Notes: generated by a model from the sequence alone, not told the origin. 64,000 bases of DNA from Dehalococcoidia bacterium (GCA_963666115.2 CAXXET010000008.1:160001-224000), one strand, 5' to 3'; positions 9,016-37,384 are shown, numbered from the stretch's first letter. Numbers and translations: made by a program.

Positions 9016-10170
9016 ATGAAGATTCACGAATACCAGGCCAAAGACGTCCTCAAGTCCTTCGGCGTCGCCGTGCCCAACGGGCGCGTCGCCGCCACTCCCG
9101 ATGAGGCGAGAGCCATCGCCGAGGAACTCGGCGGCAGGGGCGTCGTCAAGGCGCAGGTCCACGCCGGCGGGCGCGGCAAGGCCGGCGGCGTCAAGGTCGT
9201 CTCAAGCCCGGATGAGGCTGCGGAGTTCGCCGCCGGCCTGCTCGGCTCCAACCTCGTCACAGCGCAGACCGGCCCCGCCGGCGTCCCCGTCAACACCGTC
9301 CTGGTCGAAGAGCCGGTGGACATCGCCCAGGAACTCTACCTGAGCGTCACCGTGGACGGCGCGGCAAAATCGCCCGTCATCATCGCCTCCGCGGCGGGCG
9401 GCATGGAGATTGAGGAGATCGCCGAAACGTCGCCGGAAAAGATCACCCAGGTGCATATCGACCCGCTCATCGGCTACCAGCCCTTCGTTGGCCGTCGCGT
9501 CGCCGCGGCCCTGGAGCTTGACGCCGCTTTGGCGAGACCCTTTGGCGCGCTCCTTGGCGGCGTCGTCAACGCCTTCATCAAGAACGACTTGAACCTCGTC
9601 GAAATCAACCCCCTCGTCGTCACCGCCGAGGGCGCGCTTCTCGCCGCAGACGGCAAGATCGACACCGACGAAAACAGCCACTTCCGCCACCGCGACCTTG
9701 CCGAGCTGCGCGACGCAGACCAGGAAGACCCGCTGGAGCGCAACGCCAATGACAAGGGCGTCCAGTACGTCAAGCTGGACGGCGACGTTGGCTGCATGGT
9801 GAACGGCGCCGGCCTCGCCATGGCCACCATGGACGTGATCGCGCAGGTCGGCCACGCGCCCGCCAACTTCCTTGACGTGGGCGGCGGCGGCACCGAGGAG
9901 CAGGTCGCCGAGGCCTTCAAGATCATCGTCTCCGACCCGGACGTGAAGAAGGTCCTCATCAACGTCTTTGGCGGCATCCTCCGCTGCGACGTGCTGGCCA
10001 ACGGCATCGTCTCCGCCTACAAGGAGGTCGATGTCAACGTCCCCATCATCGTCCGCATGACCGGCACCAACGCCGACCAGGGCGCGGAAATCCTCCGCAA
10101 CTCGGACATCACCGTCGCAGTCGCCGCCGACCTCAACGACGCAGCCACCAAGGTTGCAGAGATTTCGTAG
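9016..10170 (+). CDS. sucC: Succinyl-CoA ligase beta subunit
   Basis: [47 protein letters not shown]. Confidence 0.98.
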
Positions 10171-10183
10171 GAGAAACAGATAA

Positions 10184-11074
10184 ATGAGCATTCTTGTTGG
10201 CGAGAACACCCGCGTCCTGGTTCAGGGCATGAGCGGACGCGAGGGAACCTTCCAGACCGAGCGCTGCATCGCCTTTGGCACCAACGTCGTGGCAGGCGTG
10301 ACGCCCGGCCGCGGCGGCACGACACACATCGACCGCCCCATGTACGACTCCGTTGCCGAGGCAGTAGAGCAGGAGGGCGCGAACGTCTCCCTCATCTTCG
10401 TCCCCGCCGCGTTCGCAACGGACGCTCTGCTTGAGGCCGCCGAGGGCGGCGTAGACCTGATCGTCTGCATCACGGACGGCCTGCCCACGCTGGACATGGC
10501 GCAGGTCGCCCAGTACCTCACAAAGAAGGGCGTCCGCCTCATCGGCCCCAACTGCCCCGGCCTCACCTCCGTCGCGGAGAAGCAAAAGGTCGGCATCATC
10601 CCCGGCAACATCCACGCGGAGGGGCGCATCGGCGTCATCTCCCGCTCCGGCACGCTGACCTATGAAGCCGTCTCCCAGCTAACCGCGCTCGGCATCGGCC
10701 AGTCCACCTGCGTCGGCGTCGGCGGCGACCCCATCATCGGCCTGCGCCACCGCGATGTGCTGGAACTATTCGAGAACGACCCTGACACGGACGCCGTCGT
10801 CCTCATCGGCGAGATCGGCGGCACTGGCGAGCAGGAAGCCGCGGACTACATCAAGAACCACATGAGCAAGCCCGTCACGGGATTCATCGCGGGTGCGACT
10901 GCCCCGCCCGGGCGCCGCATGGGACACGCCGGCGCCATCATCACGGGCACGGCGGCGACGGCGGAGGCCAAGAAACAGGCCCTCCGTGACGCCGGCTGCT
11001 ACGTCTCGGACAGCCCTGGCCAGATCGGCCTCACCGTCCAGCGGATGCTGGCAGAACGGAGGATTTCGGCTTAA
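10184..11074 (+). CDS. sucD: Succinyl-CoA ligase alpha subunit
   Basis: [25 protein letters not shown] with the phospho-His. Confidence 0.98.
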
Positions 11075-11108
11075 TTTGCCGATTTCGCGCACAGGCGCAT
11101 ACTGGTAC

Positions 11109-11126
11109 TAGTGACAACATTCACAA
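11109..11126. promoter_or_regulatory. Candidate Rex operator TAGTGAC-AACA-TTCACAA
   Basis: Matches TTGTGAA-N4-TTCACAA with two mismatches in the left arm; 33 nt upstream of the RND gene. Confidence 0.5.
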
Positions 11127-11159
11127 CTTGATCGGGTAGCCCCGGGGAGTCCTTTCGGT

Positions 11160-13697
11160 ATGCTTCTCACCCGCCTCGCCCTCCGCGCGCGCATCGTAAC
11201 GCTCGTTATCCTCGCCCTCCTGATCGCGGGCGGCATCTGGTCGTACTCCCGCCTCCAGGTCGAGTTCCTCCCCTCCGTCGATTTCCCCCTCGTCACCGTC
11301 GTCACCTTCTATCCGCAGGCGAGCCCGGAGACCGTCCTGGAGGACGTGACGATCCCCGTGGAGGACATCCTGCTGGAACAGGAATCCGTCTTGACGGTCT
11401 CCTCCACGTCCTCCCTCAACCTGTCGATCGCCTTTGCGGAGTTCGAATTCGGAACCGACGTGGTGGCAATCGAGGAGGCCGTCAAGGAAGAGATTGCCCG
11501 CCTCCAATTGCCTCCAACGGTTGCCGCGCCGCGCGTGGGGCGGCTCAGCTTCGAGCAGTTCCCCGTTTTCCAGGTGTCCATACGCAGCGGCCTCCCGCCC
11601 GAAGACCTGCAGGAGCTCGCGGAGAGCGAAGTCCTGCCCCGCCTGGAACAAGTCCCGGGCGTCGACAGCGCGACCATTCCCGCGAGCGCCGGCGCCGCAG
11701 GCGTCATCAGCCGCACGAACGGGCAGCCCAGCCTGACCATCGATGTGGTCAAGGGGCCGGACGACAACACCGTTGAGGTGGTCGACGCCGTGCAGGCCGA
11801 GCTGGAGCGGATCAAGGCAGACCTGCCCGTGGACGTGCAATTCACGGAAATATCCAACCAGGGGCCGGAGATCGAGGACTCCATCAACAAGCTGGGGCGG
11901 GAAGTCGCCCTGGGCGCGGCGCTGGCCGTCCTCGTCATCCTGGCCTTCCTCCTCAGCGTCCGCCCCACCTTCGTCACAGGCATATCCATCCCCGCCAGCC
12001 TGCTCATCGGCGTCATCGTCATGCACTGGCAGGGCATGAGCCTCAACATCGTCACGCTTGGCGGCCTGGCCATCTCGGCGGGCCGCGTCGTCGATGACTC
12101 CATCGTCGTCATGGAGAATATCTACCGCCACATCCAGGATGGCGAGGACCGCCTCCACGCCGCGTTCGAGGGCACGAAGGAAGTCGCCCTCCCAATCACC
12201 ATCGCAACCCTCACCACCATCGCCGTCTTTGCCCCCCTCGGCTTCATCGGCGGCATCGTCAGCGAGTTCTTCCTCCCCTTCGCCCTCGTCATCACCTACG
12301 CCCTGCTCGCCTCGCTGGTCGTCGCCCTCACGGCGGTGCCCGTCCTGGCGAGCCTGCTCATCAGGCGGCACGGCGAGGACACGGCGGCGGAAGCCCTCAC
12401 GCGCCGCATCGTCCGCGTCTACACCCCGATGATCACCTGGGCGCTTGGACACCGCCTCATCACCGTCCTCGGCGCGATTGTCCTGTTCCTCGGCAGCATG
12501 TCGCTTCTCGCCGGCATCCCCATCGGTTTCCTGCCCAGCAGCACACAGAACGTCTTGAGCATCGAAATCGAGGCCCCGCTGCCCACCCCGCCGGACGTCG
12601 TCGTCCAATATCTGGACGATGCGGAGGCGCGGCTGGAGCAACTGCGACTGGCCGGCGACGTTGAGGCGTACTCATCCCGTGTTGGCGGCGGCGGCGTGTT
12701 CCAGGGCGGCGCGGCCGGGCTCACGTCGATCAACATCACCGCCCGGCTGACCGAGGAGACGGACGCCGAGGCGATGGCCGCCATGCTCCGCGAGGACTTT
12801 GCTGGGCCCGGCCGCACCGTCTTCATCCAGCAGGCGCAGGGCGGCGGCCCCCCCGCCGGCGATCTCGAAGTGCGCCTGATCAGCGAGGACTACGCCCTTC
12901 TCCAGGAGGCCTCCGACAGGCTCATAGGGCCGATCAGCGAGCTCGACGGCGTGCTCAACGTTCGCTCCAACGCCATAGACGTCTCTGCCGCCGGCCCGTT
13001 CGCCGCGTCGATCCCCATTACGCGCGTGAACGGCCAGAGGACCGTCACCATCTCCGGCGTGATCACCGCGCAGGACACGCGCGCCGTGAGCGCGGAGATC
13101 GACCGTGTCGTTGCGGAGGTTGGCCTGCCGCCGGGCGTGGAGCGTGAGACGGGCGGCGTGTTCAGCGATATTCAGGAAGTCTTCACGCAGATGATCATCG
13201 CCATGGGCATCGGCGCGGTGCTGGTCTACGTCGTCATGTTCCTGGCGCAGCGTTCATTCATCACGCCGTTGATCATCCTGATCGCCGTGCCGCTCGCGTT
13301 CACGGGCGCGGTAATCGCGCTCTTCATCACGGGGCGCGCGCTGAGCCTGCCCGGGCTGATGGGGCTGCTAATGCTGATCGGCCTGGTCGTAACGAACGCC
13401 GTCGTCCTGATCGCCTTCGTAGACCAGGAAAGAGCGCGAGGCGCGCGCATACAGGACGCCCTGATAACGGGCGGCCAGGCGAGAATCCGCCCCATCCTGA
13501 TGACAGCCCTAACAACAAGCTTCGTCCTCCTCCCGCTAGCCCTGGAAGAAGCCGAAGGCGGCGGAGGCATAATAGGAGCAGAACTGGCGACAGTAATAAT
13601 AGGCGGCCTAATGACCTCCACAGTCCTAACCCTGGTAGTAATCCCAATAGTCTACCGCCTACTCCGCCGCGAACCCCCCACCGCTACAGGGACTTAG
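11160..13697 (+). CDS. RND efflux permease (AcrB/SwrC-like), shortened to 845 aa
   Basis: GRVVDDSIVVMENI proton-relay motif, GLVVTNAVVL, RIRPILMTALTT; 12-TM organisation. Confidence 0.93.
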   Translation: MLLTRLALRARIVTLVILALLIAGGIWSYSRLQVEFLPSVDFPLVTVVTFYPQASPETVLEDVTIPVEDILLEQESVLTVSSTSSLNLSIAFAEFEFGTDVVAIEEAVKEEIARLQLPPTVAAPRVGRLSFEQFPVFQVSIRSGLPPEDLQELAESEVLPRLEQVPGVDSATIPASAGAAGVISRTNGQPSLTIDVVKGPDDNTVEVVDAVQAELERIKADLPVDVQFTEISNQGPEIEDSINKLGREVALGAALAVLVILAFLLSVRPTFVTGISIPASLLIGVIVMHWQGMSLNIVTLGGLAISAGRVVDDSIVVMENIYRHIQDGEDRLHAAFEGTKEVALPITIATLTTIAVFAPLGFIGGIVSEFFLPFALVITYALLASLVVALTAVPVLASLLIRRHGEDTAAEALTRRIVRVYTPMITWALGHRLITVLGAIVLFLGSMSLLAGIPIGFLPSSTQNVLSIEIEAPLPTPPDVVVQYLDDAEARLEQLRLAGDVEAYSSRVGGGGVFQGGAAGLTSINITARLTEETDAEAMAAMLREDFAGPGRTVFIQQAQGGGPPAGDLEVRLISEDYALLQEASDRLIGPISELDGVLNVRSNAIDVSAAGPFAASIPITRVNGQRTVTISGVITAQDTRAVSAEIDRVVAEVGLPPGVERETGGVFSDIQEVFTQMIIAMGIGAVLVYVVMFLAQRSFITPLIILIAVPLAFTGAVIALFITGRALSLPGLMGLLMLIGLVVTNAVVLIAFVDQERARGARIQDALITGGQARIRPILMTALTTSFVLLPLALEEAEGGGGIIGAELATVIIGGLMTSTVLTLVVIPIVYRLLRREPPTATGT

Positions 13698-24426: not shown

Positions 24427-24798
24427 TCAGCCCCCGTTGCTGAGAACGCCCTCAACCCTGTCAACAAACTGGGCGACCTGTTCGAGACTATCCCGGATGT
24501 CCCGGCTAGTGAACTGACCCTCGTAGAAGTTCTCATGCAACCCGCCCGCCTCGTTGAAGAGGGTGCGGTAACTGTTATCGTCCGTCTCCTCCACGAGCAG
24601 ACTCACCACGCCATACAGGCGGGCATGGCTGTTGTGGTCAAACCCGCGCCGGTCGGCGTAAGCCTTGACCATCTGCGAGGCCGCCCCCCATCCCTTCTCG
24701 GACGCCTGACGGAGATCCTCCGCCTCAAGTTCCACCCAAGCCTGGCCAAGAAACCGCCGGCTCTGCTCCTGGTACCCATTGCTGTCGTGATTCGTCAT
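24427..24798 (-). CDS. PaREP1-family (HEPN-like) protein, copy 4 of tandem array
   Basis: QASEKGWGAA and LHENFYEG; TATACT 6 nt before the ATG. Confidence 0.85.
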   Translation of the reverse strand: MTNHDSNGYQEQSRRFLGQAWVELEAEDLRQASEKGWGAASQMVKAYADRRGFDHNSHARLYGVVSLLVEETDDNSYRTLFNEAGGLHENFYEGQFTSRDIRDSLEQVAQFVDRVEGVLSNGG

Positions 24799-24850
24799 GG
24801 AGACAGTATACGACATGGGCAGACGGGCAGATTCGCCTCTGAGCGCGGCT

Positions 24851-25228
24851 CTATCCGCTGCCGTTCCGCCCGTTCAGCAAGCCCTCCACCTTATCAACGA
24901 ATTGCGCGACGCTTTCCAGGCCGCCCTGCACATCCCGACCGGAGAGCTGTCCCTCATAGAAGTTAGTGTGGAGGCCGCCGGCGTCATGGAAAAGGACGCG
25001 GAAGCTGTCATCGTCCGTCTCGGCGACCAGGCGGCTGACAGCGCCAAAGAGGAGGCCGTGACTATCGTGATTCAGACCCCGCAGAACCGCGTAGGCCTTG
25101 ACCATCTGGGAAGCAGCCCCCCACCCCTTCTCGGAGGCCTGGTGGAGGTCTTCGGCTTCCAACTCCACCCAAGCCTGGTCAAGAAACCGCCGCCCCTGCC
25201 GCTGGTACCCATTGCTAAAGCTAGTCAT
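24851..25228 (-). CDS. PaREP1-family protein, copy 3
   Basis: QASEKGWGAA, LHTNFYEG; TATACT 6 nt before the ATG. Confidence 0.85.
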   Translation of the reverse strand: MTSFSNGYQRQGRRFLDQAWVELEAEDLHQASEKGWGAASQMVKAYAVLRGLNHDSHGLLFGAVSRLVAETDDDSFRVLFHDAGGLHTNFYEGQLSGRDVQGGLESVAQFVDKVEGLLNGRNGSG

Positions 25229-25287
25229 AGGCACAGTATACGGGATGCGGAACACGCGGACGGGCAGATTCGCTTGTGAGCGTTGTG

Positions 25288-25668
25288 TTATCCGCTGCCG
25301 TTCCGCCCATTCAGCAGCCCCTCAACCTTGTCAACAAACTGCGCGATCTGCCCCAGCGTTGCCCGCAGCACTTCTTTATCCATGCCGCCTTCGTAATAGT
25401 TCACGTGGAGGCCGCTGGCAGTGCTGAAGAGAGTGCCGATGGACGTGTCCCCCGTTTCGCGCGCGAGGGCGCTCGCAACGCTGAAGAGGAAGCCATGCGT
25501 ATCATGTCGGAGCCCGCGTTCCTCCGCCGCAGCCTTCACGAGTTGGGCCGCCGCCCCCCATCCCTTCTCGGAGGCCTGGTGCAGATCATCCGCCTCCAGT
25601 TCCACCCAAGCCTGATCGAGGAATACGCGCCCCTGCTGAGCATAAGTCATCCCATAACCATTCATCAT
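25288..25668 (-). CDS. PaREP1-family protein, copy 2
   Basis: QASEKGWGAA, LHVNYYEG; TACACT 6 nt before the ATG. Confidence 0.85.
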   Translation of the reverse strand: MMNGYGMTYAQQGRVFLDQAWVELEADDLHQASEKGWGAAAQLVKAAAEERGLRHDTHGFLFSVASALARETGDTSIGTLFSTASGLHVNYYEGGMDKEVLRATLGQIAQFVDKVEGLLNGRNGSG

Positions 25669-25714
25669 CGAAACAGTGTACCTGAGTCTGCTCTACGTTC
25701 CCGGAGGCACGGCG

Positions 25715-26095
25715 TTATCCGCTGCCGTTCCGACCGTTCAGCAGCCCCTCGATCCTCTCAACAAGCAGCTCGATGTCCTGCAGCGCGGCGCGGATGTCCT
25801 CCGCGCTGATCCCCCCTTCATAGTAGTTGACGTGGAGTCCGCTCGCGATCTGAAACCCGCGGCGAATGACGCCGTCGCCGTCGTCCTCGCCGATGATGCC
25901 GGTCGCGCGAAACAGCAGCCCATGAGTGTCATGCGGGATGCCGCGCTCATCCGCCGCAGCCTTCACCAGTAGCGCCGCCGCGCCCCACCCCTTCTCCGCC
26001 GCCTGCGACAGATCCCCCCGCGCAAGCTCATCAAAAGCCTGCGACAGGTAAACCCGCCCCTGCTCCGCATAGGTCACGCCGTAGCCATTCATCAT
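25715..26095 (-). CDS. PaREP1-family protein, copy 1
   Basis: QAAEKGWGAA, LHVNYYEG; TATACT 6 nt before the ATG. Confidence 0.85.
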   Translation of the reverse strand: MMNGYGVTYAEQGRVYLSQAFDELARGDLSQAAEKGWGAAALLVKAAADERGIPHDTHGLLFRATGIIGEDDGDGVIRRGFQIASGLHVNYYEGGISAEDIRAALQDIELLVERIEGLLNGRNGSG

Positions 26096-28658: not shown

Positions 28659-29129
28659 CTACACGGCGCCGCGTAGTGGAGTGAACAAGCTCGCGCTGCC
28701 CCCAATTGCCAGCGCGGCGGCAAACAGGCGGGCATCCGCAGTAAGCAGAAGGTACCCGCGTGACACCGCCTCCAGTAGTGCGCTGTCGGTTAGGCCGAAC
28801 CTCTCGAATTCCTCCCGTCGCGCCGCGGTTTGGCTGGCAATGACAATCTCCTCTCCCTGGTCGATCACGCGGCGCAGCAGCGCCAAAAGGCGAGAGCGAT
28901 CCGGCTGGCCATGCTGTGCAAGAAGGTTGCCTGCCTCCGTCAAGGTATTCGGCGTGACCACGATGGGCTCGTGCCCCGAAATGATCCCCCTCAACTCCTC
29001 GAAGTCGTCCGGCGCATAGCCGGAGAGCCGCCGGTGCGTGAGGATAAGATTCCGGTCAAATCGGCCAACGATCAGGAGGACAAGCAGATTCGAATCGATG
29101 AGTATTCTGTTCGCGGCGGGTATGCTCAT
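28659..29129 (-). CDS. PIN-domain protein
   Basis: ILIDSNLLV, TPNTLTEAGN, FGLTDSAL, LLTADARL. Confidence 0.85.
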   Translation of the reverse strand: MSIPAANRILIDSNLLVLLIVGRFDRNLILTHRRLSGYAPDDFEELRGIISGHEPIVVTPNTLTEAGNLLAQHGQPDRSRLLALLRRVIDQGEEIVIASQTAARREEFERFGLTDSALLEAVSRGYLLLTADARLFAAALAIGGSASLFTPLRGAV

Positions 29130-29425
29130 TCGGCCTCGGGGAAGTCAAGCAGGGCGCGGTCCGTCACCCGCAGCACCCGGCTGCTCCCGTCATCGATGGT
29201 GACCATCTTGAACGTGCGCGGATGGCGCGTCTTCATCAGCGAATCGACCCACGGCCCGTCCTGCTCCCACGGACGCGCAAAGCCGATAGTAATCATCCAC
29301 CGCCCTGTATCGGGATTGTGGACGACCTCTTCAAGCCCAACGTTGGCAATCTCCTCGTCCTCGAAGAGAGTCACAATCTCCGCGCGGGCAATCTCGACGG
29401 CTTTCTTCACGTGCAGTTGCGGCAT
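29126..29425 (-). CDS. Hypothetical PIN-partner protein (GLEEV..W.ITIGF.RPW family)
   Basis: Overlaps the PIN start; paralog immediately upstream. Confidence 0.7.
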   Translation of the reverse strand: MPQLHVKKAVEIARAEIVTLFEDEEIANVGLEEVVHNPDTGRWMITIGFARPWEQDGPWVDSLMKTRHPRTFKMVTIDDGSSRVLRVTDRALLDFPEAE

Positions 29426-29429
29426 CGTT

Positions 29430-29723
29430 TCACCTGAACATGCGCGGCGTCGCGCGCTCGGCAAGCCCGATAACTTGCCGGCTCTCATCATCGATTGTCA
29501 CGAGCTTATACGTCCTGGGATGCTCGGAAGTATCGTAAGGGCTGTGGCGCGGAGGCCTGAAAGCCCAGGGCCGCTTGAATCCGATGGTAATCTTCCATCT
29601 GCCAGCCTCCGGATCGTGGACGACCTCCTCCAGGCCGACGTTCTCAATCCCCTCAACGTCAAAGAGGCCCCGTACCTCCCGCTTGGCGATGTCCACCGCC
29701 GCCCTAACCTCAAGATTAGCCAT
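29430..29723 (-). CDS. Hypothetical PIN-partner protein, tandem duplicate
   Basis: NVGLEEVVH.P..GRW.ITIGF.RPW..HPRT.K.VTIDD shared with 29126-29425. Confidence 0.7.
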   Translation of the reverse strand: MANLEVRAAVDIAKREVRGLFDVEGIENVGLEEVVHDPEAGRWKITIGFKRPWAFRPPRHSPYDTSEHPRTYKLVTIDDESRQVIGLAERATPRMFR

Positions 29724-29813
29724 GCCCGCCTCGCCACTCCCTCCCAACACACAACCATTCTATAGCAGAGTGTCAGTTGCCCTCACCCGCCCCCCATGTA
29801 TACTGTCCCCACC

Positions 29814-30197
29814 ATGAACGGATACGGCAGAACATACGCAGAGCAGGGCCGCATCTACCTTGCGCAGGCTTATGAGGAGCTTGAGCGGGGCGACCTCCCG
29901 CAGACCGCGGAGAAAGGCTGGGGCGCAGCGTCTCAGCTCGTCAAAGCCGCCGCCGATGAGCGAGGCCTGCCCCATCACTCCCACGGCTTCCTCTTCCGCG
30001 CCGTCGGAGTCCTCGGTGAAGAGCAGGGCGGCGATGTTATCCGGCAAGGCTTCTTCTCCGCGCACGGCCTCCACGGCAACTACTACGAAGGCGGAAGCCC
30101 CGAAGCCGACATCCGAGCCGCCCTAAAAGACGTAGAATCCCTAGTTGAAACAATCGAGGGAATGCTGAACGGGCGCAATGGAGCGACAACTCCCTAG
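29814..30197 (+). CDS. PaREP1-family protein, copy 5
   Basis: AEKGWGAA, LHGNYYEG; TATACT 9 nt before the ATG. Confidence 0.85.
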   Translation: MNGYGRTYAEQGRIYLAQAYEELERGDLPQTAEKGWGAASQLVKAAADERGLPHHSHGFLFRAVGVLGEEQGGDVIRQGFFSAHGLHGNYYEGGSPEADIRAALKDVESLVETIEGMLNGRNGATTP

Positions 30198-30313: not shown

Positions 30314-30673
30314 ATGAAGCTCACCAAAATAGCAGCCTGGGCAGCCCACCTCTGGGCTTGGGCCGTCGGCCTCTGGATGACCTTCGGCCCCTTCTACAGC
30401 GATGGCGCGACGCTGGTCGAACAGAACGGCGCATACGTTCTCCTGATACTGCTCTTCCCCATTCTGATGTCCGGCATCGCGCTCCTGGCCATCCGCTTCA
30501 TCGATGCCGGACGGGTAGCGCGCAAAGCGCTCCTGTGGACAATAGCCCTGGTTCTCGTGGCCCTCTGCATAGCGACCTATATCTCCCTCTGCATATTCTA
30601 TCTCCCAATGGTGATCGTACTGCTGGTTGTGGCCATACGCGAGGGAGGGCTTACGGCTGTTCGGTGGCGATGA
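30314..30673 (+). CDS. Hypothetical membrane protein
   Basis: Three to four hydrophobic helices. Confidence 0.6.
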   Translation: MKLTKIAAWAAHLWAWAVGLWMTFGPFYSDGATLVEQNGAYVLLILLFPILMSGIALLAIRFIDAGRVARKALLWTIALVLVALCIATYISLCIFYLPMVIVLLVVAIREGGLTAVRWR

Positions 30674-30742
30674 GCGCCATCTCCGCCTCCGGGTCCGACA
30701 CCCCAAACCGCGCCCCCGCCCCCCATGTATACTGTCCCCACC

Positions 30743-31126
30743 ATGAACGGCTACGGCAGGACATACGCTGAACAGGGGCGCATCTACCTTGCCCAGGCTT
30801 ACGAAGAGCTTGAGCGCGGAGACCTCCCGCAGGCCGCGGAGAAAGGCTGGGGCGCAGCGTCTCAGCTCGTCAAAGCCGCCGCCGATGAGCGTGGCCTGCC
30901 GCATCACTCCCACGGGCTGCTTTTCCGGACTGTGGGGGTTCTTACCGAGGAATCCGGAGATGATGCCATTCGCCGGGGGTTTGACTCCGCCAGTTCCCTT
31001 CACGTCAACTACTATGAGGGCGGCGCAGCGAAGGTGAATATCCGCGCAAGCTTGCAGGACGTCGAGTCCCTCGTCGAAACAATCGAAACCATGCTAAACG
31101 GCCACAACGGCGCAACAACTCCCTAG
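30743..31126 (+). CDS. PaREP1-family protein, copy 6
   Basis: N-terminal half nearly identical to copy 5; LHVNYYEG. Confidence 0.85.
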   Translation: MNGYGRTYAEQGRIYLAQAYEELERGDLPQAAEKGWGAASQLVKAAADERGLPHHSHGLLFRTVGVLTEESGDDAIRRGFDSASSLHVNYYEGGAAKVNIRASLQDVESLVETIETMLNGHNGATTP

Positions 31127-31200: not shown

Positions 31201-31320
31201 GGTGGTGACCTTCCAGCGACCTGCGTCCGGTTCACACGGAGTCAGGCGGTTCCTCGTCAAGCTGGAAAACGGTGAGGATTCCTTCCATCATGGAAGGATA
31301 TGGCAACTGGGAGGTTGAGC

Positions 31321-31779
31321 ATGGACAAGACATGGAAAGTCGCCGGCATTACCGTTGTGATGGCTTTAGTCACGCTGACAATGACGGCATGTCAGGGCCC
31401 TCAGGGGCCAGCAGGTCCGGTTGGGCCTCAAGGACTAATTGGCCCGGTGGGACCCCAAGGAGCAGTAGGGCCAGTTGGACCCCAAGGACCAATAGGGCCG
31501 CAGGGTCCGGAAGGACAGCCTGGCTCACAGGTGACCGCACCGAGCGAAGAGATGCAGGAGCCCTATAGTGCAGAGATGTATGACGACTGCCGAGACGCTT
31601 TCGGCAGCATGAGCGCCACCACCTTGAGGCTCCTCTTGGCATCCGGAGCGGACGAAGATGACTACCAATTTCTACTTGAAATGTCAGATTCAGACGTTCG
31701 TGGTGTGATGAAGCTGGGGTGCCTGGCTATTGCCTCAGGTGGTCGTGCACCCTTCGGCTCTTTTTGGGATGAAACGTAG
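31321..31779 (+). CDS. Lipoprotein with collagen-like (Gly-X-Y)15 repeat
   Basis: MTAC lipobox followed by [12 protein letters not shown]... Confidence 0.8.
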
Positions 31780-31898
31780 CTCATTTGGGGTTTGGATGGT
31801 AGAACCCAAGAGCGTCTCGATAGGGTTGGTGCCCTCCGCTTGTCCCCCTCCAGGGGTTCACATAGAATGGCGTGGACAGTAATGAGGGAGACACAGCC

Positions 31899-32237
31899 AT
31901 GAGCCGCGTCGTTGTACTGCTGGAACCGACTTTCCTGCGTGACCGCGAGAACGGCGAGTACGCGGCGCGATTCCGCAGCCTCGGCCTCACCGCCTACGGC
32001 GATACCCGCGACGAGGCCCTGACGGCGCTAAAGGACTTCTTCGCCTTCTTCGTCCGCAAGCGTCGTGAAAACGGCACCCTTGAATGGTTCCTGGATAAAG
32101 CAGGCGTCGAGTGGTACCCGGAAGACAAATACCCACACGACCCAAGCGTAATCGAGTATCTCGGCGAGGACAGCGAAGCCGCATCACGCTGGATTCGCGT
32201 CGACCCCACATCCCCATACACCACCCTCGCCGCATAA
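31899..32237 (+). CDS. HicB-like antitoxin-fold protein
   Basis: YAARFRSLGLTAYGDTRDEAL..L motif; GAGGGAG RBS. Confidence 0.6.
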   Translation: MSRVVVLLEPTFLRDRENGEYAARFRSLGLTAYGDTRDEALTALKDFFAFFVRKRRENGTLEWFLDKAGVEWYPEDKYPHDPSVIEYLGEDSEAASRWIRVDPTSPYTTLAA

Positions 32238-32241
32238 GTAG

Positions 32242-32526
32242 GTGAACATTCCGGGAGACGTTCCGGCGCATTACGTCATTGAGGCGTATGCCAGGCTCGG
32301 ATTCGCATTGGAGCAGGGCGGATTCGCCCAACTCAGCTTTCGGAATGATGAGGGCATCCTCCTGTTCCACGCCATGCGGCGCGAAGGCATGATCAACGTG
32401 CCAATTGCGCTCGAAGACATCGGGCTGGTTGAGACCATCAATGTCCTGCCACCCGGCTGGGGCCGTGAAACCTGGTTGGCCGCCCTGCTGGACGTGATGC
32501 AAGACCCCTACTACGCGCCACGATAG
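32242..32526 (+). CDS. Small hypothetical protein, possible HicA-like partner
   Basis: IEAYARLGF; 4-bp gap after the HicB-like gene. Confidence 0.45.
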   Translation: MNIPGDVPAHYVIEAYARLGFALEQGGFAQLSFRNDEGILLFHAMRREGMINVPIALEDIGLVETINVLPPGWGRETWLAALLDVMQDPYYAPR

Positions 32527-32548
32527 CGCACAGCCGTCCCCTCGCCTG

Positions 32549-33910
32549 TCAACGTGCCATATCTTGGACGTTCTCCTCCCCCTCCCCCTTCATCAACGCC
32601 ATCTCTGCCTCCGGATCCGACACCCCGAACCGCGCCATCGCCGTCCGCCTCGAACGCAGCCCGTTCTTCACAAGCTCAATCTCCTGCCGCGCGACCTGCG
32701 CCTGGTCCTGCGGCAAAATCGCCCCCCACTCGATCGACGTCCGGTACGGCGCCAGAGGCTCGCCCGTCATCTGCTCATGGATGCGAAGCGCGATCTCATT
32801 CCGCTTGCGGTACGCCGCCGCCCGGATAAGCCGCTTCCGCCGCAGCTTGTGCAGCAGCGGGTGGAGTTCCATCTCCAGTGCCACCCCGGACAGCCCCTGC
32901 CGGTTGTCCCCAAAGGCGATGCGCGGCGTCTCCGAGAGGTCGTGCAGCGCGCGGTAGATGGCGTTCACGTAGTCGATGTGCAGCTGCACCCCGCCCCCCT
33001 GCAGCAGGTCCAACAGGTACGCGCGCGCCCGGTCCGGCAGCTCCCACACCGCCCCGGGCTGTATGGCGATGTCCTGCGACTGATCGACGTTCTCCAGCAC
33101 CGCGATGGGATTGCCGGAGAGTTCCAGGATCATGGAGAGCTGCGAGAGGGCGCGGTTCAGTTCCCGGATCGGCTCCATCATCGCGGGAATGTCGGACACC
33201 CCCCAGAACTGCTTGGGCGCGCGGATGTTGGGATACACCACGAACGGGATGAGCCCGTACGGGTTCGCCTCATCCCGCGCGAGCGTGTCCCCCGCGTACA
33301 ACCGGAACCTCTTGTCGTCCCACACCTCCGTGATCGTGATGCGAGACTGCGCCCTGCCCCGCGCCGGCGGCCGGACGCCATGCAGCTCGCGCGCCTCCTC
33401 CGCGTCCAGCGTATAGCGCGAGGCCACGCGCCGGATGCGGTTCACGTCATCCCCCACCCACCAGCAGTGGAGTCCCTGCACGTCCGGCGCCGTGATGCGG
33501 ATGCCGCCCCGCCCATCGTCCCACGTGATCTTGTACGCCCCGTCGCCCAGCACCGCGGTGTCGATCTCCGTGTCGAAATCGAGCTGGTCGAGCGAATTGA
33601 CCTCCGCCATGTCCGCCAGCAGCCGCTCTGCCCCCCGCGCCCGCTCCTGCTCCTCCGGCGAGGCGTCCAGGGGCGGCACGGTGGAGCGCAGATCGGCCAT
33701 CAGGTACGACGTGACCTTCTCGACGGACGCGCGCGCGTAGTTGAAGGTAAGCCGCCGCTCGCGCCCCCGCGTCCGCCCCGGCCAGTGCTCGCCCTCGTAG
33801 AACGCCAGGTTGCGCCGGTAGCGTTCCCGCCGCTCCGTGTCCCGCTTGTCCAGCGATGACGGAACGAAATCGTCGCGGCTCTCCGTCCGCCCGTTCAGCG
33901 ATGTCGTCAT
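32549..33910 (-). CDS. Phage portal protein (SPP1 gp6-like)
   Basis: FYEGEHW, NYARASVEKVTSYL, NPYGLIPFVVYPN, GVSDI, LSGVALE, SRRTAM..GV.DPEAE. Confidence 0.85.
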   Translation of the reverse strand: MTTSLNGRTESRDDFVPSSLDKRDTERRERYRRNLAFYEGEHWPGRTRGRERRLTFNYARASVEKVTSYLMADLRSTVPPLDASPEEQERARGAERLLADMAEVNSLDQLDFDTEIDTAVLGDGAYKITWDDGRGGIRITAPDVQGLHCWWVGDDVNRIRRVASRYTLDAEEARELHGVRPPARGRAQSRITITEVWDDKRFRLYAGDTLARDEANPYGLIPFVVYPNIRAPKQFWGVSDIPAMMEPIRELNRALSQLSMILELSGNPIAVLENVDQSQDIAIQPGAVWELPDRARAYLLDLLQGGGVQLHIDYVNAIYRALHDLSETPRIAFGDNRQGLSGVALEMELHPLLHKLRRKRLIRAAAYRKRNEIALRIHEQMTGEPLAPYRTSIEWGAILPQDQAQVARQEIELVKNGLRSRRTAMARFGVSDPEAEMALMKGEGEENVQDMAR

Positions 33911-34308
33911 GGCGCAGCCTCTCTCCTCTCGGCGTCTGCCTGCTCGTCGTCGCGCCGCGCGGATTCCAGCGCGCGAAAGACGGTGCGTCTCCCAACCTTG
34001 AATCTCTTGGCGATGGCGGGGACGGACAGCCCCTCCTCCAGTCGCGCCGCCGCGATGGCCTTGTCGCGTGACGCCAGCCGTTCGCGGCGCGTGACCGGCC
34101 CCTCGTCGTAGCGGCAGCGCGGATACGGGCAGTCCAGGGAGCTCGTGCACTCCTCGCCGCACCCCCGGTCCATGTACAGCGTGTCCTCCGGTAGCCTGTC
34201 CCCCCGTTTCCCGCTCCGACGCGCAAGCGGTATCTCCAGTTGATCCACGTTGTTCGGCCTGCGCGGGCGGGGCGGCCGGGCGCCCTGCCCGGACGATTCA
34301 CGTGACAT
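33907..34308 (-). CDS. Cys4 metal-binding + HTH DNA-binding protein
   Basis: YMDRGC..C..LDCPYPRCRYD, then GLSVPAIAKRFKVGRRTVFRAL; start uncertain. Confidence 0.75.
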   Translation of the reverse strand: MSRESSGQGARPPRPRRPNNVDQLEIPLARRSGKRGDRLPEDTLYMDRGCGEECTSSLDCPYPRCRYDEGPVTRRERLASRDKAIAAARLEEGLSVPAIAKRFKVGRRTVFRALESARRDDEQADAERREAAP

Positions 34309-34357
34309 CCGATTGCCTCCTCCCGGCGCGAATTGGGCGAAAATCCTGGCGGAACGT

Positions 34358-35761
34358 CTAGCTGGTGGAACGGCTGCGTCCGACAGCCGTGCGAAGACCC
34401 CCTTCCTGCGCGCTCGCGTGCGCCGCCAGGGCCAGCGAAATCAGGTAATCGTCGCGGCCATCCCGCTCCGGCACGTAGAAGTTCATCGTGTGGTTCGCGT
34501 TGTGCTGCGCCTGCGCGTAGTGAATCTGGCGCCGCGCCGCCGCGGATTCCGATGACAGGTCGTCCGCGTACAGCCGCAGGCGCCCCGCGTTGACCATCGC
34601 AAGCAGCCCAAAGCCGATCTTGGACTTCGAATGCTGCGTGAACGTGATGGGCTGCACGGCCTGTCCCACGCGGTGCTGGAGGGAGGCGACCATCGGCTCC
34701 CCGATGCCGGTCGCGTCCACGGCGACCCGCCGCACGCGCCACACGTTCTTCAGCAGGTCCGTCAACTGCTCCAGGAGCGCCCCGTGTGGAGTCCCGCGCC
34801 AGTAATAGTGCTGCACGATGTGAACCTGCGGCTCGTCGAAGCCGTGGCCGGGGATGATCTCCGCGATCGTGAGAACCGTCTCGTCGCGCTGGACAACGCG
34901 GTCCGCGCCCCACTCCGTCTCGGTAATGGCCAGCGGCGCGCCGGCCAGATCGAGACCCGCCGCGTAGATCGCTCCGGGGCGCGGCGACTGCTGCCGGGGG
35001 TGGTCGCCGTGCAGTTGAACGACGTGCGCGCGGCTGAAGAGGCGGGTGTTCTCATCCACCGGCAGAAGCGCGTACTGCGTCCGGAACAGCGGATGCTCCT
35101 CGCCCAGCCGCTGCCGCTCCCCCTCCACGAAGGCCCCGTAGAGCCGGTTGTGCCGCGCAACCTCCTGCCAGTCGTAGCGGAAGTGCCGCCTCCGCCCCGC
35201 TCTGCCGTAGGCGCTCTGCGACGAGCCCACGCGCTCCGTGGCCTTCACCTGTTCCAGCAGGGAATCGCTGCGCCATGCCGTGCCGTACAGCACCGTCGTC
35301 GCGTTCTGCGCCGCGGCCATCGGGCGGAAATCGCGGTTGAACTTGTCCGGCAAAACGTCCTGCGCCTCGTCGATCTCCAGCAGGAGATCCGCCGTCTGCC
35401 CGACGACATTCGACGTCGGGTGCGCGCTGAGATACGTGGCGCGGCAGTGGCCGACCCGGAGAACGTGCCCCCTGTCCAGGCGGGATATGGTGCTCAGGCC
35501 GCTCTCCTCCAGCCGCTGCATGACCCGCTCGATGGAGATCAGCGCCTGCGGCTGAAAGGTGGGCGCCGCCTTGACCAGCGCGCCCCCCCGCGCCGCGTTC
35601 CGCAGCAGCAGCACCATCTGGAGATACGCGGACAACTCGTTCTTCCCCGCCTGACGCGCCATCTCCACCGTGAACGTCAACCCCCGCCGGTTGAACACGG
35701 AGTCCAGCACGGCCCGCGCAACGTCCGCCTGGTACGGGCGCAGGCGGATGCCCGTCGTCAC
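34358..35761 (-). CDS. Terminase large subunit
   Basis: LRPYQ, Walker A RQAGKN, Walker B LLEIDEAQD, RNase-H acidic motifs GLDLA, VDATGIG and DDYLISLALA. Confidence 0.88.
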   Translation of the reverse strand: MTTGIRLRPYQADVARAVLDSVFNRRGLTFTVEMARQAGKNELSAYLQMVLLLRNAARGGALVKAAPTFQPQALISIERVMQRLEESGLSTISRLDRGHVLRVGHCRATYLSAHPTSNVVGQTADLLLEIDEAQDVLPDKFNRDFRPMAAAQNATTVLYGTAWRSDSLLEQVKATERVGSSQSAYGRAGRRRHFRYDWQEVARHNRLYGAFVEGERQRLGEEHPLFRTQYALLPVDENTRLFSRAHVVQLHGDHPRQQSPRPGAIYAAGLDLAGAPLAITETEWGADRVVQRDETVLTIAEIIPGHGFDEPQVHIVQHYYWRGTPHGALLEQLTDLLKNVWRVRRVAVDATGIGEPMVASLQHRVGQAVQPITFTQHSKSKIGFGLLAMVNAGRLRLYADDLSSESAAARRQIHYAQAQHNANHTMNFYVPERDGRDDYLISLALAAHASAQEGGLRTAVGRSRSTS

Positions 35762-35763
35762 GG

Positions 35764-35958
35764 CTACAACCCCGCCACGCGCATGATCGCCTGCAGCGCC
35801 ACCGTCCCCACGATCAGCAGGAACAGGTTGTTGATCCGCCCCCGCAGGTCCTCCAGCTGCTGCTCGAGCGCCTGCATCTGTTGCCGCAGCAGCGCCTCGA
35901 ATGCCGTGCTCGGCTCCGTGTCGAGCGCGGGTTTCTCATCGGTCCGATGATTCGCCAT
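35764..35958 (-). CDS. Small coiled-coil protein with C-terminal TM helix
   Basis: AAAGGAG RBS; coiled coil followed by LFLLIVGTVAL. Confidence 0.65.
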   Translation of the reverse strand: MANHRTDEKPALDTEPSTAFEALLRQQMQALEQQLEDLRGRINNLFLLIVGTVALQAIMRVAGL

Positions 35959-35985
35959 TCCGTGTACTCTCCTTTAAGGTGTCGG

Positions 35986-36378
35986 CTAACTGGTGTTCTC
36001 TGGCGTCATAAAGTCGAAGTCCTCGTCCATGACCGGGAAGAGCTGCTCGCTAAGCCCCTCCATGGTGCCGGCGAGATTCTCCAGCAGTTCGTTCTCCGGC
36101 TTGGCCCCCAGCCGGTGCCGCGCCGCGAGTGTGTGAGACAGCGTGCTGATGGCTTTCATCAGGAGCGGAAGGTCGTCCGGCCTGTCCTCGAGGACGGTCA
36201 AAATCTTCGCCCGCAGAACGGCAACCTCATCATCCAGGCCGTTCACGTTCTTGGCGCGCTTCGCGTACTCCTTCTCCCCGGCGGACATCGCGCGCTCATA
36301 GAAGTTGGCCTTTGCCCTCCGGCGCGGCGACACGGCCTGGGCGGGCGATTTCGCCGCGCTGTCGATTGTCTTGATCAT
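35986..36378 (-). CDS. Putative terminase small subunit
   Basis: NFYE..GLDDEVAVLRAKI helical pattern; position upstream of TerL. Confidence 0.55.
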   Translation of the reverse strand: MIKTIDSAAKSPAQAVSPRRRAKANFYERAMSAGEKEYAKRAKNVNGLDDEVAVLRAKILTVLEDRPDDLPLLMKAISTLSHTLAARHRLGAKPENELLENLAGTMEGLSEQLFPVMDEDFDFMTPENTS

Positions 36379-36388
36379 CGGCGCTCCC

Positions 36389-36571
36389 CTACGCCCGCCC
36401 GCCGGACGGCGGCTCGCCCGGAACCTCGTCGAAAAACAGGGCAAGCACGTCCGGCGGCGTCTCGATGATCGCCTGCGCTAGACCCCAGATCAGCGCGAGC
36501 GCCGAAAGCTCGCTCAACTCGGGCGACTCGGATTGCCGGATAGCCTTCAGAGTGGCCGACTGTGCCGTCAT
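36389..36571 (-). CDS. Small hypothetical protein, first gene of the terminase operon
   Basis: GGGGAGG RBS; follows the promoter. Confidence 0.5.
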   Translation of the reverse strand: MTAQSATLKAIRQSESPELSELSALALIWGLAQAIIETPPDVLALFFDEVPGEPPSGGRA

Positions 36572-36631
36572 CCCATCCTCCCCCTGCCCCTGTGCGATTT
36601 CCCGCGTGGGCTCGTGTGTCGTTAGAACGGA

Positions 36632-36660
36632 AGAATAGAATATACGTTCTTATCCGTCAA
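36632..36660 (-). promoter_or_regulatory. Sigma70 promoter TTGACG-17-TATTCT with overlapping LexA (SOS) box AGAACGTATATTCT (36637-36650)
   Basis: One mismatch to AGAAC-N4-GTTCT; the box lies in the spacer and touches the -10. Confidence 0.75.
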
Positions 36661-36799
36661 TGCCTCGTGACACATCCGCGCGGCGCGGGACGGCCCTGCG
36701 CCGTCCGGTTGCCCCGACTCGGATACACTGGTAGGAGGCGCGCATGGCGCGTCCGGACTTTCAGGACGGAAGCGAGGACAATCGACGGGTGAATTGCCG

Positions 36800-37384
36800 A
36801 TGAAAGCCGTGAGAACGGCGCTTGTGAGCATTGCGCTGGCCGCGTTGGCGCTGTCGGGAGCCTGCGCCGCTGTTGACGGCGTGTTCCGCCAGCCGCTGCC
36901 GTCCCCCGAAACGCTGAACCTCCAGGCCTTCATGTTGGAGGGCGGCGGCGTCATGCCCGGCACGGATGTCGTCCGCGTCAACTGGAGCCCCCCGGACGAC
37001 GATCTGGACATCGACTTCGTCGTCATCGAGTACTCGGAGAATGAAGACGGCCCGTGGGATGAGATCGCCGCGAAAGCCCCCGACGCCGGACACTACGAGC
37101 ATGGCGCCATCTTTACCAGCGGCAGCTTCCACTATTACCGCGTATTCCTCGCGCGCGGTCAGGAAGAGACGCCCCCGACCGACCCGATAGCCGTCTGGAT
37201 ACCGGGGCAGGGAGCCCTTGACCGCGCCGGCCCCGGCCAGGTCCTCCCGGCCAATCGAACCCCGACGCCCGTCCCGGGATCGGACGCCCCCCCCACGCCC
37301 CTCCCCACCGTTTCCGGCGACAGCAACGCGCCGTTCATGGTCGTTCCTCCCACCCCAACGGCGCCGCCAACGCCCGTCGCCTGA
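36800..37384 (+). CDS. Lipoprotein with fibronectin-III-like domain and Pro/Thr tail
   Basis: SGAC lipobox; VRVNWSPP..F.VIEYS..GPW..YYRV. Confidence 0.6.
   Translation: MKAVRTALVSIALAALALSGACAAVDGVFRQPLPSPETLNLQAFMLEGGGVMPGTDVVRVNWSPPDDDLDIDFVVIEYSENEDGPWDEIAAKAPDAGHYEHGAIFTSGSFHYYRVFLARGQEETPPTDPIAVWIPGQGALDRAGPGQVLPANRTPTPVPGSDAPPTPLPTVSGDSNAPFMVVPPTPTAPPTPVA

Follow-up and report, generated by a model that had tools for sequence, protein, structure and literature searches.

What do terminase and portal genes do in a bacterial chromosome when neither a capsid gene nor an integrase gene lies beside them? This question is raised by a 64,000-nt stretch of DNA from a marine Dehalococcoidia bacterium (GCA_963666115.2, CAXXET010000008.1:160001-224000), which is called the window here and corresponds to G000:C8:160001-224000, inside a 240-kb contig. 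On its minus strand the window carries an operon of six genes, L1, which an earlier note had described as an SOS-box-controlled, capsid-less terminase-portal operon maintained by the host, with its head genes either lying elsewhere or replaced by a use of the motor without a capsid. We found the head genes in the same genome at two further sites, a capsid operon (L2) and a scaffold gene (L3), and the gene set is inherited vertically under purifying selection. With a probability of roughly 0.6, L1 is the packaging third of a podovirus-like particle system which was domesticated long ago, is divided into three unlinked units and resembles a gene transfer agent (GTA). The genome, G000, comprises 2.07 Mb in nine contigs (63.5% G+C) and is rated 100% complete. 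The relatives set consisted of 41 genomes, of which 21 are congeneric, and gene calls were taken from a simple codon-usage caller that missed atypical genes, e.g. EcoRII/Dcm/Vsr.

L1 consists of six co-oriented, tightly spaced and frameshift-free open reading frames (ORFs) at 32549-36571. They are given here in the order of transcription together with the ratio of nonsynonymous to synonymous substitution rates (dN/dS), which was determined pairwise by the Nei-Gojobori method on tblastn-aligned segments from 5-10 genomes per gene after removal of pairs with dS >3 (0-4/45 per gene).

36389-36571, minus strand: orf60, a small protein and the first L1 gene in this genome; orthologues with 48-71% identity in 9/9 genus loci; dN/dS 0.235
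35986-36378, minus strand: TerS-like protein (terminase small subunit), 130 aa, assigned by homologue alignment; dN/dS 0.194
35764-35958, minus strand: cc64, 64 aa, with a coiled coil predicted at the N-terminus and a hydrophobic, transmembrane (TM) helix at the C-terminus; dN/dS 0.158
34358-35761, minus strand: TerL, the large terminase subunit, 467 aa, with ATPase and RNaseH-like nuclease motifs; dN/dS 0.112
33907-34308 (alternative start 34248), minus strand: Cys-rich helix-turn-helix (HTH) protein, 133 aa, HTH_23 match at 5.4e-7; dN/dS 0.204
32549-33910, minus strand: portal protein, 453 aa, PF05133, the final L1 gene; dN/dS 0.086

The unbroken run of six genes is real. The portal protein, whose start overlaps the stop of the Cys-HTH gene, matches the Pfam family SPP1_portal (PF05133) with E=6.5e-14, above the cut-off, as well as phrog_64 (1.6e-26). 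For TerL the family match is weak (Terminase_6C with 21 bits vs a cut-off of 22.6; phrog_5909, 1.7e-8). Its RPYQ, RQxGKN (Walker A) and LLExDE (Walker B) motifs and three nuclease Asp motifs are invariant in 18/18 aligned orthologues across the class; the earlier note had already called the ATPase and nuclease motifs intact. The HTH protein combines a Cys-rich N-terminus with a DNA-binding domain of the HTH_23/HTH_7 type, and its gene sits between TerL and portal in 9/9 genus loci and in 5 loci of other families. No family match of its own was obtained for the TerS-like copy of the window; in an alignment of 20 homologues, matches to phrog_1889 were obtained for 11 (best 2.9e-10) and to phrog_509 for 10, and both families are annotated as 'terminase small subunit'. 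In the genus the N-terminal GAPxGNQNARKHGFYS motif of the phage-type relatives has been replaced. cc64 is kept in 8/9 genus loci (not detected in G014) and in two other families. Family scans of the Pfam/PHROG type gave no match for orf60 and cc64, and PDB sequence searches with TerL, the portal and p661, a protein of L2, gave no or marginal matches.

A seventh gene is located between the promoter and orf60 in 12/18 congeners and has been deleted in G000 and five further ones. It encodes a protein of about 100 aa with three hydrophobic helices and a basic tail, for which no family match was obtained and which might act in release (holin-like). In G009 (L018 7030-8340) the 3' part of the membrane-protein gene at the operon head is tandemly repeated several times, and the copies alternate with a short GC-rich palindromic element (GGATTCCGGCTTTCGCCGGAATGACGGAGGGG-like).

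The capsid operon L2 was found at G000:C8:145628-149711, 46 kb upstream of L1 and outside the window, and contains in this order genes for the major capsid protein (MCP), an SU10-type adaptor, the 661-aa protein p661, the 71-aa protein p71 and an ASCH-domain protein. MCP and adaptor span C8:145628-147124, 13 kb outside the window, and were located via homologues in G039, a genome of another family. The MCP matches PF05065 (1.1e-9), phrog_212 (1.8e-70) and also the Pfam family SU10_MCP, by which it is assigned to the HK97-type capsid proteins, and the adaptor matches SU10_adaptor (9.4e-11). With regard to p661, its position, weak profile matches and Atlas leads suggest a putative tail or nozzle protein: the profile matches are BNR/sialidase-like (best E=0.0028), the Atlas leads comprise 'phage tail protein' clusters (0.98-0.99) and a Sipho_Gp37 cluster (0.92), and family scans of 31 p661 homologues yielded nothing usable. 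The MCP is present in 21/21 congeners with 82-91% identity. Moreover, L2 is syntenic in 10/10 loci fetched, where it is bounded by a TPR-protein gene and two conserved host genes. Its dN/dS values are 0.080 for the MCP, 0.112 for the adaptor, 0.154 for p661, 0.127 for p71 and 0.070 for the ASCH protein.

The edges of L2 carry insertions in G000 only among 11 genomes compared. An EcoRII/Vsr/Dcm restriction-modification island occupies G000:C8:142326-145350 (L031 2326-5350) between the TPR gene and the capsid promoter, with the N- and C-terminal domains of EcoRII as two separate ORFs, and the ASCH gene is followed by an insertion of two genes for N-methyltransferases.

The third locus, L3, encodes a 156-aa acidic, coiled-coil-like protein at G000:C7:135549-136019 and stands alone on another contig, with relA, a gene for a small basic protein and a tRNA-Leu gene as neighbours. 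It was found as the sole G000 homologue of the gene that environmental relatives carry between portal and MCP, a position it also occupies in 8 genomes of other families and in 50/80 loci from the IMG/VR database. This position and the make-up of the protein, along with a weak match to phrog_233 'head scaffolding' (E=0.015), lead us to read it as the scaffold protein. It is present in 21/21 congeners with 59-79% identity.

Thus, a head module of the HK97-fold tailed-phage type, with portal, TerL and HK97-type MCP, can be recognised by family matches and TerL motifs. The description as capsid-less does not hold for the genome as a whole, the idea of a motor working without a capsid is refuted by the capsid operon 46 kb away, and the alternative that the head genes lie elsewhere is borne out by L2 and by the scaffold gene on another contig. 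The search proposed in the earlier note, for an unlinked capsid, scaffold or tail locus with common promoter motifs, was successful for both loci. In complete genomes L1 and L2 are 46-116 kb apart and L2 and L3 5-280 kb; in most of them the scaffold gene is remote from the other two loci. In G018, for example, TerL, MCP and scaffold genes map to 1.089, 1.137 and 1.372 Mb, respectively. An assembly chimera was rejected, since single-contig genomes have the identical three-locus layout. Reverse searches of all ORFs of the 80 IMG/VR loci against G000 returned only the three loci and two tyrosine recombinases, and no further component.

Genes for mobility were not detected. No integrase-like match was obtained in 33 loci and the window, i.e. 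within about 10 kb around any component, and the window contains no tRNA gene and no att-like direct repeat flanking the operon. The earlier note was right that integrase, att repeat and capsid are missing from the window; the sole PF05065 match in the genome is the MCP gene of L2. The two tyrosine recombinases, on C4 and C6, are the only ones in the genome and are read as XerC/D-type. With one capsid gene and two recombinases genome-wide, there is no second prophage to lend parts. Replication genes were not seen among homologues of the relatives' ORFs, a comparison that did not include a family search for replication.

Conservation within the genus is nearly complete. TerL occurs as one copy each in 21/21 congeners (69-81% identity) and in 37/41 genomes of the relatives set, and the likewise single-copy portal in 20/21 congeners (83-91% identity), the miss being G001, an assembly of 230 contigs. 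The order of L1 is kept in 9/9 genus loci fetched. On one side it is flanked by a lipoprotein gene, rex and the ATP-synthase operon (7/9), on the other side by a variable stretch followed by an enoyl-CoA hydratase gene. dN/dS ranges from 0.08 to 0.24 for all 11 genes of L1 and L2, vs 0.03-0.21 for 15 flanking host genes, and dS amounts to 0.72-1.03 in L1, 0.72-1.29 for the element genes overall and 0.49-1.65 for host genes. Host-like dS together with low dN/dS points to a long divergence under purifying selection and not to a recent arrival or a decaying relic.

The element also follows its host in descent. Trees of portal, TerL and MCP were compared with trees of AtpD, AtpA and AtpG for the identical 18 genomes (G036, without atpD, was omitted). 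Both recovered the genus clade with 100/100 support, an inner order of G014, G000 and then (G004,G008) and G007/G013/G018, and a group of G037/G038/G039. Element and host distances were correlated with r=0.96 among 17 genomes (reached in 0/2000 permutations; G029, which has TerL only, was excluded), with r=0.83 within the genus (2/2000) and with r=0.69 among 7 genomes of other families (15/2000). As kin are not independent, these correlations are taken as consistency and not as proof. The earlier note had proposed a host-maintained packaging module and not a decaying prophage, and this is supported by the conservation (TerL 21/21, portal 20/21), the selection, the largely agreeing trees and the discovery of L2 and L3. 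It had also named findings that would speak against such a module. Relaxed selection was not seen, the closest homologues are syntenic orthologues and not genes of active prophages, and neither an assembly break after the portal nor a full prophage beyond it was present in the 240-kb contig. A patchy distribution, which it had listed as well, is not observed within the genus (20-21/21), but it is above the genus level.

All three loci have related promoter motifs. The relevant features of the L1 promoter region are as follows.

36632-36660, minus strand: L1 promoter TTGACG-17 nt-TATTCT, 9/12 consensus positions
36667-36674, minus strand: upstream element TGTGTCAC, 6 nt upstream of the -35 box, the L1 version of a (C)ATGTG-N-CACAT(G) palindrome
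36638-36649, minus strand: LexA-box-like operator GAAC-GTAT-ATTC in the promoter spacer, with one mismatch to the core GAAC-N4-GTTC

The L1 promoter is the only sigma-70-like minus-strand match in 31800-37000 and is conserved in 18/18 congeners examined, which confirms the single promoter that had been proposed. Promoter alignments comprised 18 genomes for L1, 11 for L2 and 12 for L3. In all three, (C)ATGTG-N-CACAT(G), which has the form GTGTG-N-CA(T/C) in L1, is positioned 5-6 nt upstream of a TTGAC/TTGC -35 box. A genome scan for this motif plus the -35 box found 15 sites vs 6.2 in shuffles; the full palindrome CATGTGNCACATG with at most two mismatches has 65 matches, mostly intragenic, and is too loose to inform.

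L1 and L2 are moreover alike across the promoter spacer, with GATAAG, G(A/T/C)AC-N4-(A/G)TTC and TAT. The L1 operator reads GAAC-N4-ATTC with variable N4 in 17/18 genomes and GCAC-N4-GTTC in G009, and half-sites that are kept while N4 varies are the pattern of a dimer operator. The forms AGAAC-N4-ATTCT in L1 and G[TCA]AC-N4-GTTC in L2 each have one mismatch in the 8-nt core. lexA is present in the genome and has its own perfect CGAAC-N4-GTTCG box, CGAACAGGGGTTCG, 55 nt upstream. Perfect GAAC-N4-GTTC sites number 12 in the genome; nine of them are intergenic and mark a likely LexA regulon. Sites with at most one mismatch to the LexA core occur at 0.40 per kb of intergenic DNA. As the boxes of L1 and L2 are one base off the core and such sites occur at this density, control by LexA is plausible but unproven. 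The description of L1 as SOS-box-controlled thus amounts to a resemblance in sequence only, with one core mismatch to the box upstream of lexA. The intergenic perfect boxes include C2:45107, C6:194690, C6:259955, C6:545567 and C8:158900. One perfect box lies between two genes near the window start, upstream of a gene that runs to window position 519.

The TGTG-N-CA element was also observed on a non-coding repeat. Three copies of about 640 nt are 94-98% alike (C7:131356-131995; C4:429354-429992, minus strand; C4:277816-278472, minus strand), and related copies of about 510 nt occur at C6:562700-563212 and C7:218869-219380 (both minus strand). All five lie outside the window. At least four copies start with CCATGTG(A/C)CACC-N-TTG(A/C) and a -10-like box; the copy at C4:278472 is included by similarity only. 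The repeat contains neither a convincing ORF nor a tRNA, is not matched by Rfam at the gathering or E-value threshold, and may be a structured RNA or a mobile element.

Beyond the genus, the portal profile (E<=1e-30) matched 233/401 Dehalococcoidia genomes (one of the matches is the unpublished genome G257), 183/299 high-quality genomes and 136/223 genera, nearly always as one copy. Families tend to be all-or-none, as seen in counts of 23/25, 11/12, 0/25 and 0/11. At E<=1e-60 and a completeness of at least 90% the portal was found in 19/35 genomes of the class vs 16/265 elsewhere in the phylum. The gene arrangement differs among the carriers. G039 has a near-ancestral order, with the portal followed by capsid and SU10-adaptor-like genes, and is host-flanked; G038 carries adaptor, portal, scaffold and MCP, then p661 and further on TerL; G027 has the set from portal to p71 on one contig and TerL on others; and in the complete genomes of group g84 the genes from HTH to p71 are together, with TerS at least 6 kb away. 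In group g54 a deletion has left a remnant in which a truncated portal is joined to the end of p661. Compared with the environmental loci described below, these layouts point to one ancestral gene order that was broken up differently among families. A separate observation concerns L186 (G153) 9186-13570, in a complete 1.47-Mb genome of another family, where scaffold, capsid and adaptor are cleanly deleted. The remnant consists of the HTH gene, the first 274 residues of the portal fused in line to the last ~430 residues of p661, and p71, with TerL/TerS on the opposite strand.

Phage-like relatives were found in IMG/VR, where a search with the single portal protein gave no match and an alignment query brought them to the surface. 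The comparison covered 80 loci, all on contigs of at most 27 kb and with a portal identity of 49-57%. Their order is TerS, TerL, (HTH), portal, scaffold, MCP, a variable stretch, adaptor, p661 and p71. At a coverage of at least 50%, the portal was detected in 80 loci, the MCP in 72, the adaptor in 65, p661 in 36, the HTH protein in 27, TerL in 21, p71 in 14 and the TerS-like protein in 9, with many of the misses falling at contig ends. Four of the 80 (L130, L150, L153 and L162; portal identity ~52%) have a tyrosine integrase upstream of TerS, which indicates that mobile, phage-like relatives exist. L162 encodes a GP4-type podophage fibre (Gp80 match, E=1.1e-52) and L150 an ASCH protein. IMG/VR classes 453 relatives as viral. 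Cultured phages are distant, with identities of at most 41.6% for the MCP, 32.6% for TerL and 25.2% for the portal.

Taken as a domesticated particle system, the three loci suggest the following course of events. A common regulator would act at the TGTG-N-CA element upstream of the -35 box, and a repressor, possibly LexA, would sit on the GAAC-N4-(A/G)TTC operator in the spacers of L1 and L2 and then release it. Scaffold, capsid and portal proteins would assemble into procapsids, which TerS and TerL would fill with DNA. With structural genes at scattered sites and neither an excision nor a replication module, only host chromosome could be packaged. Adaptor, p661 and p71 would then close the particle, and released particles may deliver their DNA to kin. 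The system is thus a candidate GTA of independent origin. GTAs are host-encoded particle genes with vertical inheritance and purifying selection, devoid of autonomous phage functions and not packageable as a unit; the first pair of properties was observed for this gene set, and so was the second within the searches described above, with no integrase near any component and the genes spread over three loci on two contigs, at least 46 kb apart. A fuller version of this reading holds that it is a genuine GTA of podovirus-like origin whose domestication goes back to near the root of the Dehalococcoidia and which persists in single copy in ~60% of genera, with a scattered regulon that responds to DNA damage through LexA and a second, TGTG-N-CA-binding regulator. 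We regard this version as tentative, with somewhat less than even odds. Our guess is that organohalide-respiring and marine lineages may be among its carriers. The genome also encodes ComEC and DprA, which are compatible with a GTA-like system but unspecific, being common in bacteria.

Several observations weigh against a GTA-like system. It is described at the level of genes, and we infer from the sequence that the loci are regulated together, that their products assemble into particles and package host DNA, and that these particles are released and transfer it. p661, p71, cc64 and orf60 are without a family match, so that neither a functional tail nor a mechanism of release is proven; genes for a fibre, a receptor-binding protein or an endolysin were not identified, and the three-TM candidate release protein is missing in G000 and 5 other of 18 congeners. 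Regarding regulation, the operator departs in one core base from a genuine LexA box, the promoter of the scaffold gene is without a LexA-box-like operator, and the TGTG-N-CA element, which also heads the five copies of the unrelated non-coding repeat, is not private to the particle system. The descent has exceptions, too: G032 is placed differently in the element and host trees, and poorly supported basal branches differ as well. Stops or splits were seen in G004 (MCP), G019 (portal), and G016 and G006 (both scaffold); they could be assembly errors or real damage. Moreover, copies are degraded in G029 and G030 (fragmented) and reduced to a deletion remnant in g54, and searches of the relatives set did not find the system in G022-G024, the three other members of the family there, or in G026 and G040. 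One therefore has to assume either that it was lost repeatedly or that the genus ancestor acquired it later from a related lineage.

The data on conservation, selection and regulation would fit equally well if the particle system had been domesticated for a use other than gene transfer, be it interference with phages, a killer or bacteriocin-like particle, or a regulated export of DNA under stress (eDNA release). In the case of interference, capsid, portal or terminase proteins would hijack or starve the assembly or packaging of an infecting phage, in the manner of satellites. L1 and L2 adjoin variable islands rich in restriction-modification genes and small paralogous genes, the integrase-bearing relatives could be targets or competitors, and delivery to a recipient is not evident as no fibre or receptor-binding protein was found. 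Nevertheless, few genes suffice for interference, yet TerS, TerL, portal, scaffold, capsid, adaptor and two genes in tail position are kept by purifying selection, and no toxin-like or lytic effector was seen in the loci. We therefore consider a use without transfer rather unlikely, although it is the strongest competitor of the GTA-like reading.

Much further from the evidence is a cryptic prophage that was broken by rearrangement and decays slowly, its conservation reflecting hitch-hiking and a short divergence. The gene set is indeed incomplete for a phage, with no replication, lysogeny or fibre genes seen, some lineages have frameshifted or deleted copies, the canonical N-terminal motif of TerS is lost in the genus and one small gene is deleted in 6/18 congeners. 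Decay of this kind would bring relaxed selection, pseudogenes and sporadic presence, whereas decay was seen only in some other lineages. All 11 genes have dN/dS as low as the flanking host genes despite a dS of ~0.7-1.3, the catalytic motifs of TerL are intact in 18/18 orthologues, the promoters are conserved, and the genes are kept in 20-21/21 congeners despite genomes of ~2 Mb as well as in 136/223 genera; a slow decay is hence highly improbable. Even less credence can be given to an active or recent temperate phage or satellite that re-integrates at the same sites and thereby mimics vertical descent. It would draw on the tyrosine integrase beside the terminase in 4/80 environmental loci and on the relatives that IMG/VR classes as viral. 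A satellite, moreover, would form a single island with integrase, att sites and replication or primase genes. What we found are three loci parted by host genes, with no integrase, att repeat or flanking tRNA; element distances follow host distances, and the nearest relatives are syntenic orthologues, with cultured phages far away.

The surroundings of L1 contain further features. The variable stretch downstream of the portal is occupied by six paralogues of 126-134 aa with the motif EKGWGAA...NYYEG (24427-26095, minus strand; 29796-30197 and 30725-31126, plus strand), the copy number and position of which vary among congeners. A 156-aa protein followed by two paralogous proteins of ~100 aa is encoded at 28659-29750 on the minus strand, and G021 has homologues in the corresponding position; the arrangement resembles a small toxin-antitoxin-type cassette. 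At 31300-31779 on the plus strand there is a predicted lipoprotein of 159 aa whose GPxG repeats are collagen-like (Pfam Collagen, 8.6e-8). The PHROG matches of this protein to 'tail fibre' are confined to the repeat and are thus not evidence of a tail gene. Another feature recalls the portal itself.

30670-30720, strand not assigned: 51-nt copy of the portal 3' end (32592-32642) with 86% identity, repeat family D1, 1.9 kb beyond the portal

This copy is possibly the scar of a rearrangement that parted the portal from scaffold and capsid. Short C-terminal portal fragments are likewise present in G004, G007 and G009.

Dehalococcoidia are abundant in marine, subsurface and host-associated habitats. 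If the genes make DNA-carrying particles, these small, streamlined genomes would have a built-in route of gene exchange. The loci also show how far a phage head module can be dismantled and yet stay selected, with portal, scaffold and capsid genes at three sites. Three conserved promoters, a candidate operator and complete genomes of other genera with a near-contiguous version provide handles for testing. To our knowledge, only a handful of independent GTA families exist, in Alphaproteobacteria, Bartonella, Brachyspira, Desulfovibrio and Methanococcus. In about 8.4 million full texts, a collection that leaves subscription-only papers and supplements outside, we found no description of a GTA in Dehalococcoidia or Chloroflexi, of a conserved terminase/portal/capsid set in Dehalococcoidia or of a domesticated GTA of podovirus type. 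If our reading holds, this would be the first GTA of the Chloroflexota and the first with a known podovirus-type gene set.

Among known systems, encapsulins share with L2 an HK97-fold shell protein kept by the host, and an SrpI-like Pfam family is matched weakly by the MCP (E=0.0015, below the cut-off). Portal, terminase, scaffold and adaptor are all missing from encapsulins, whereas they are conserved here together with the capsid gene; an encapsulin was rejected because portal, terminase and adaptor accompany the capsid. Capsid-forming phage-inducible chromosomal islands (cf-PICI) each form one mobile island, which carries integrase, att sites and replication genes and depends on a helper phage. 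Like them, the system described here has its own capsid, portal and terminase but does not amount to a full phage. Unlike them, it has no integrase, att site or replication genes that we could find, and the genome holds no other phage capsid, portal or TerL. The podoviruses with an SU10-type adaptor and GP4-type fibres and the integrase-bearing contigs L130, L150, L153 and L162 resemble it in the order TerS-TerL-(HTH)-portal-scaffold-MCP-...-adaptor-p661-p71, in the SU10_adaptor and SU10_MCP matches and, in the case of L150, in the ASCH protein. In contrast to those contigs, with a portal identity of ~52%, G000 is without integrase, small early genes, fibre and the genes between MCP and adaptor, and its genes are dispersed and host-flanked. 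The GTA of Rhodobacter capsulatus (RcGTA), an alphaproteobacterium, is siphovirus-like with a tape measure and a tail tube. Our candidate differs from RcGTA by its independent origin in the Chloroflexota, by podovirus-like genes on the tail side, where the adaptor is of the SU10 type and the detected homologues include neither tube nor tape measure nor sheath, by the splitting of the head module itself, with portal, scaffold and capsid at three sites, and by a function that is putative here. Similar to RcGTA, it comprises phage-derived head and packaging genes that the host retains, spread over more than one locus and without integrase or replication genes, that are inherited vertically under purifying selection over a large clade, that include a TerS divergent from its phage relatives and that have a possible link to LexA.

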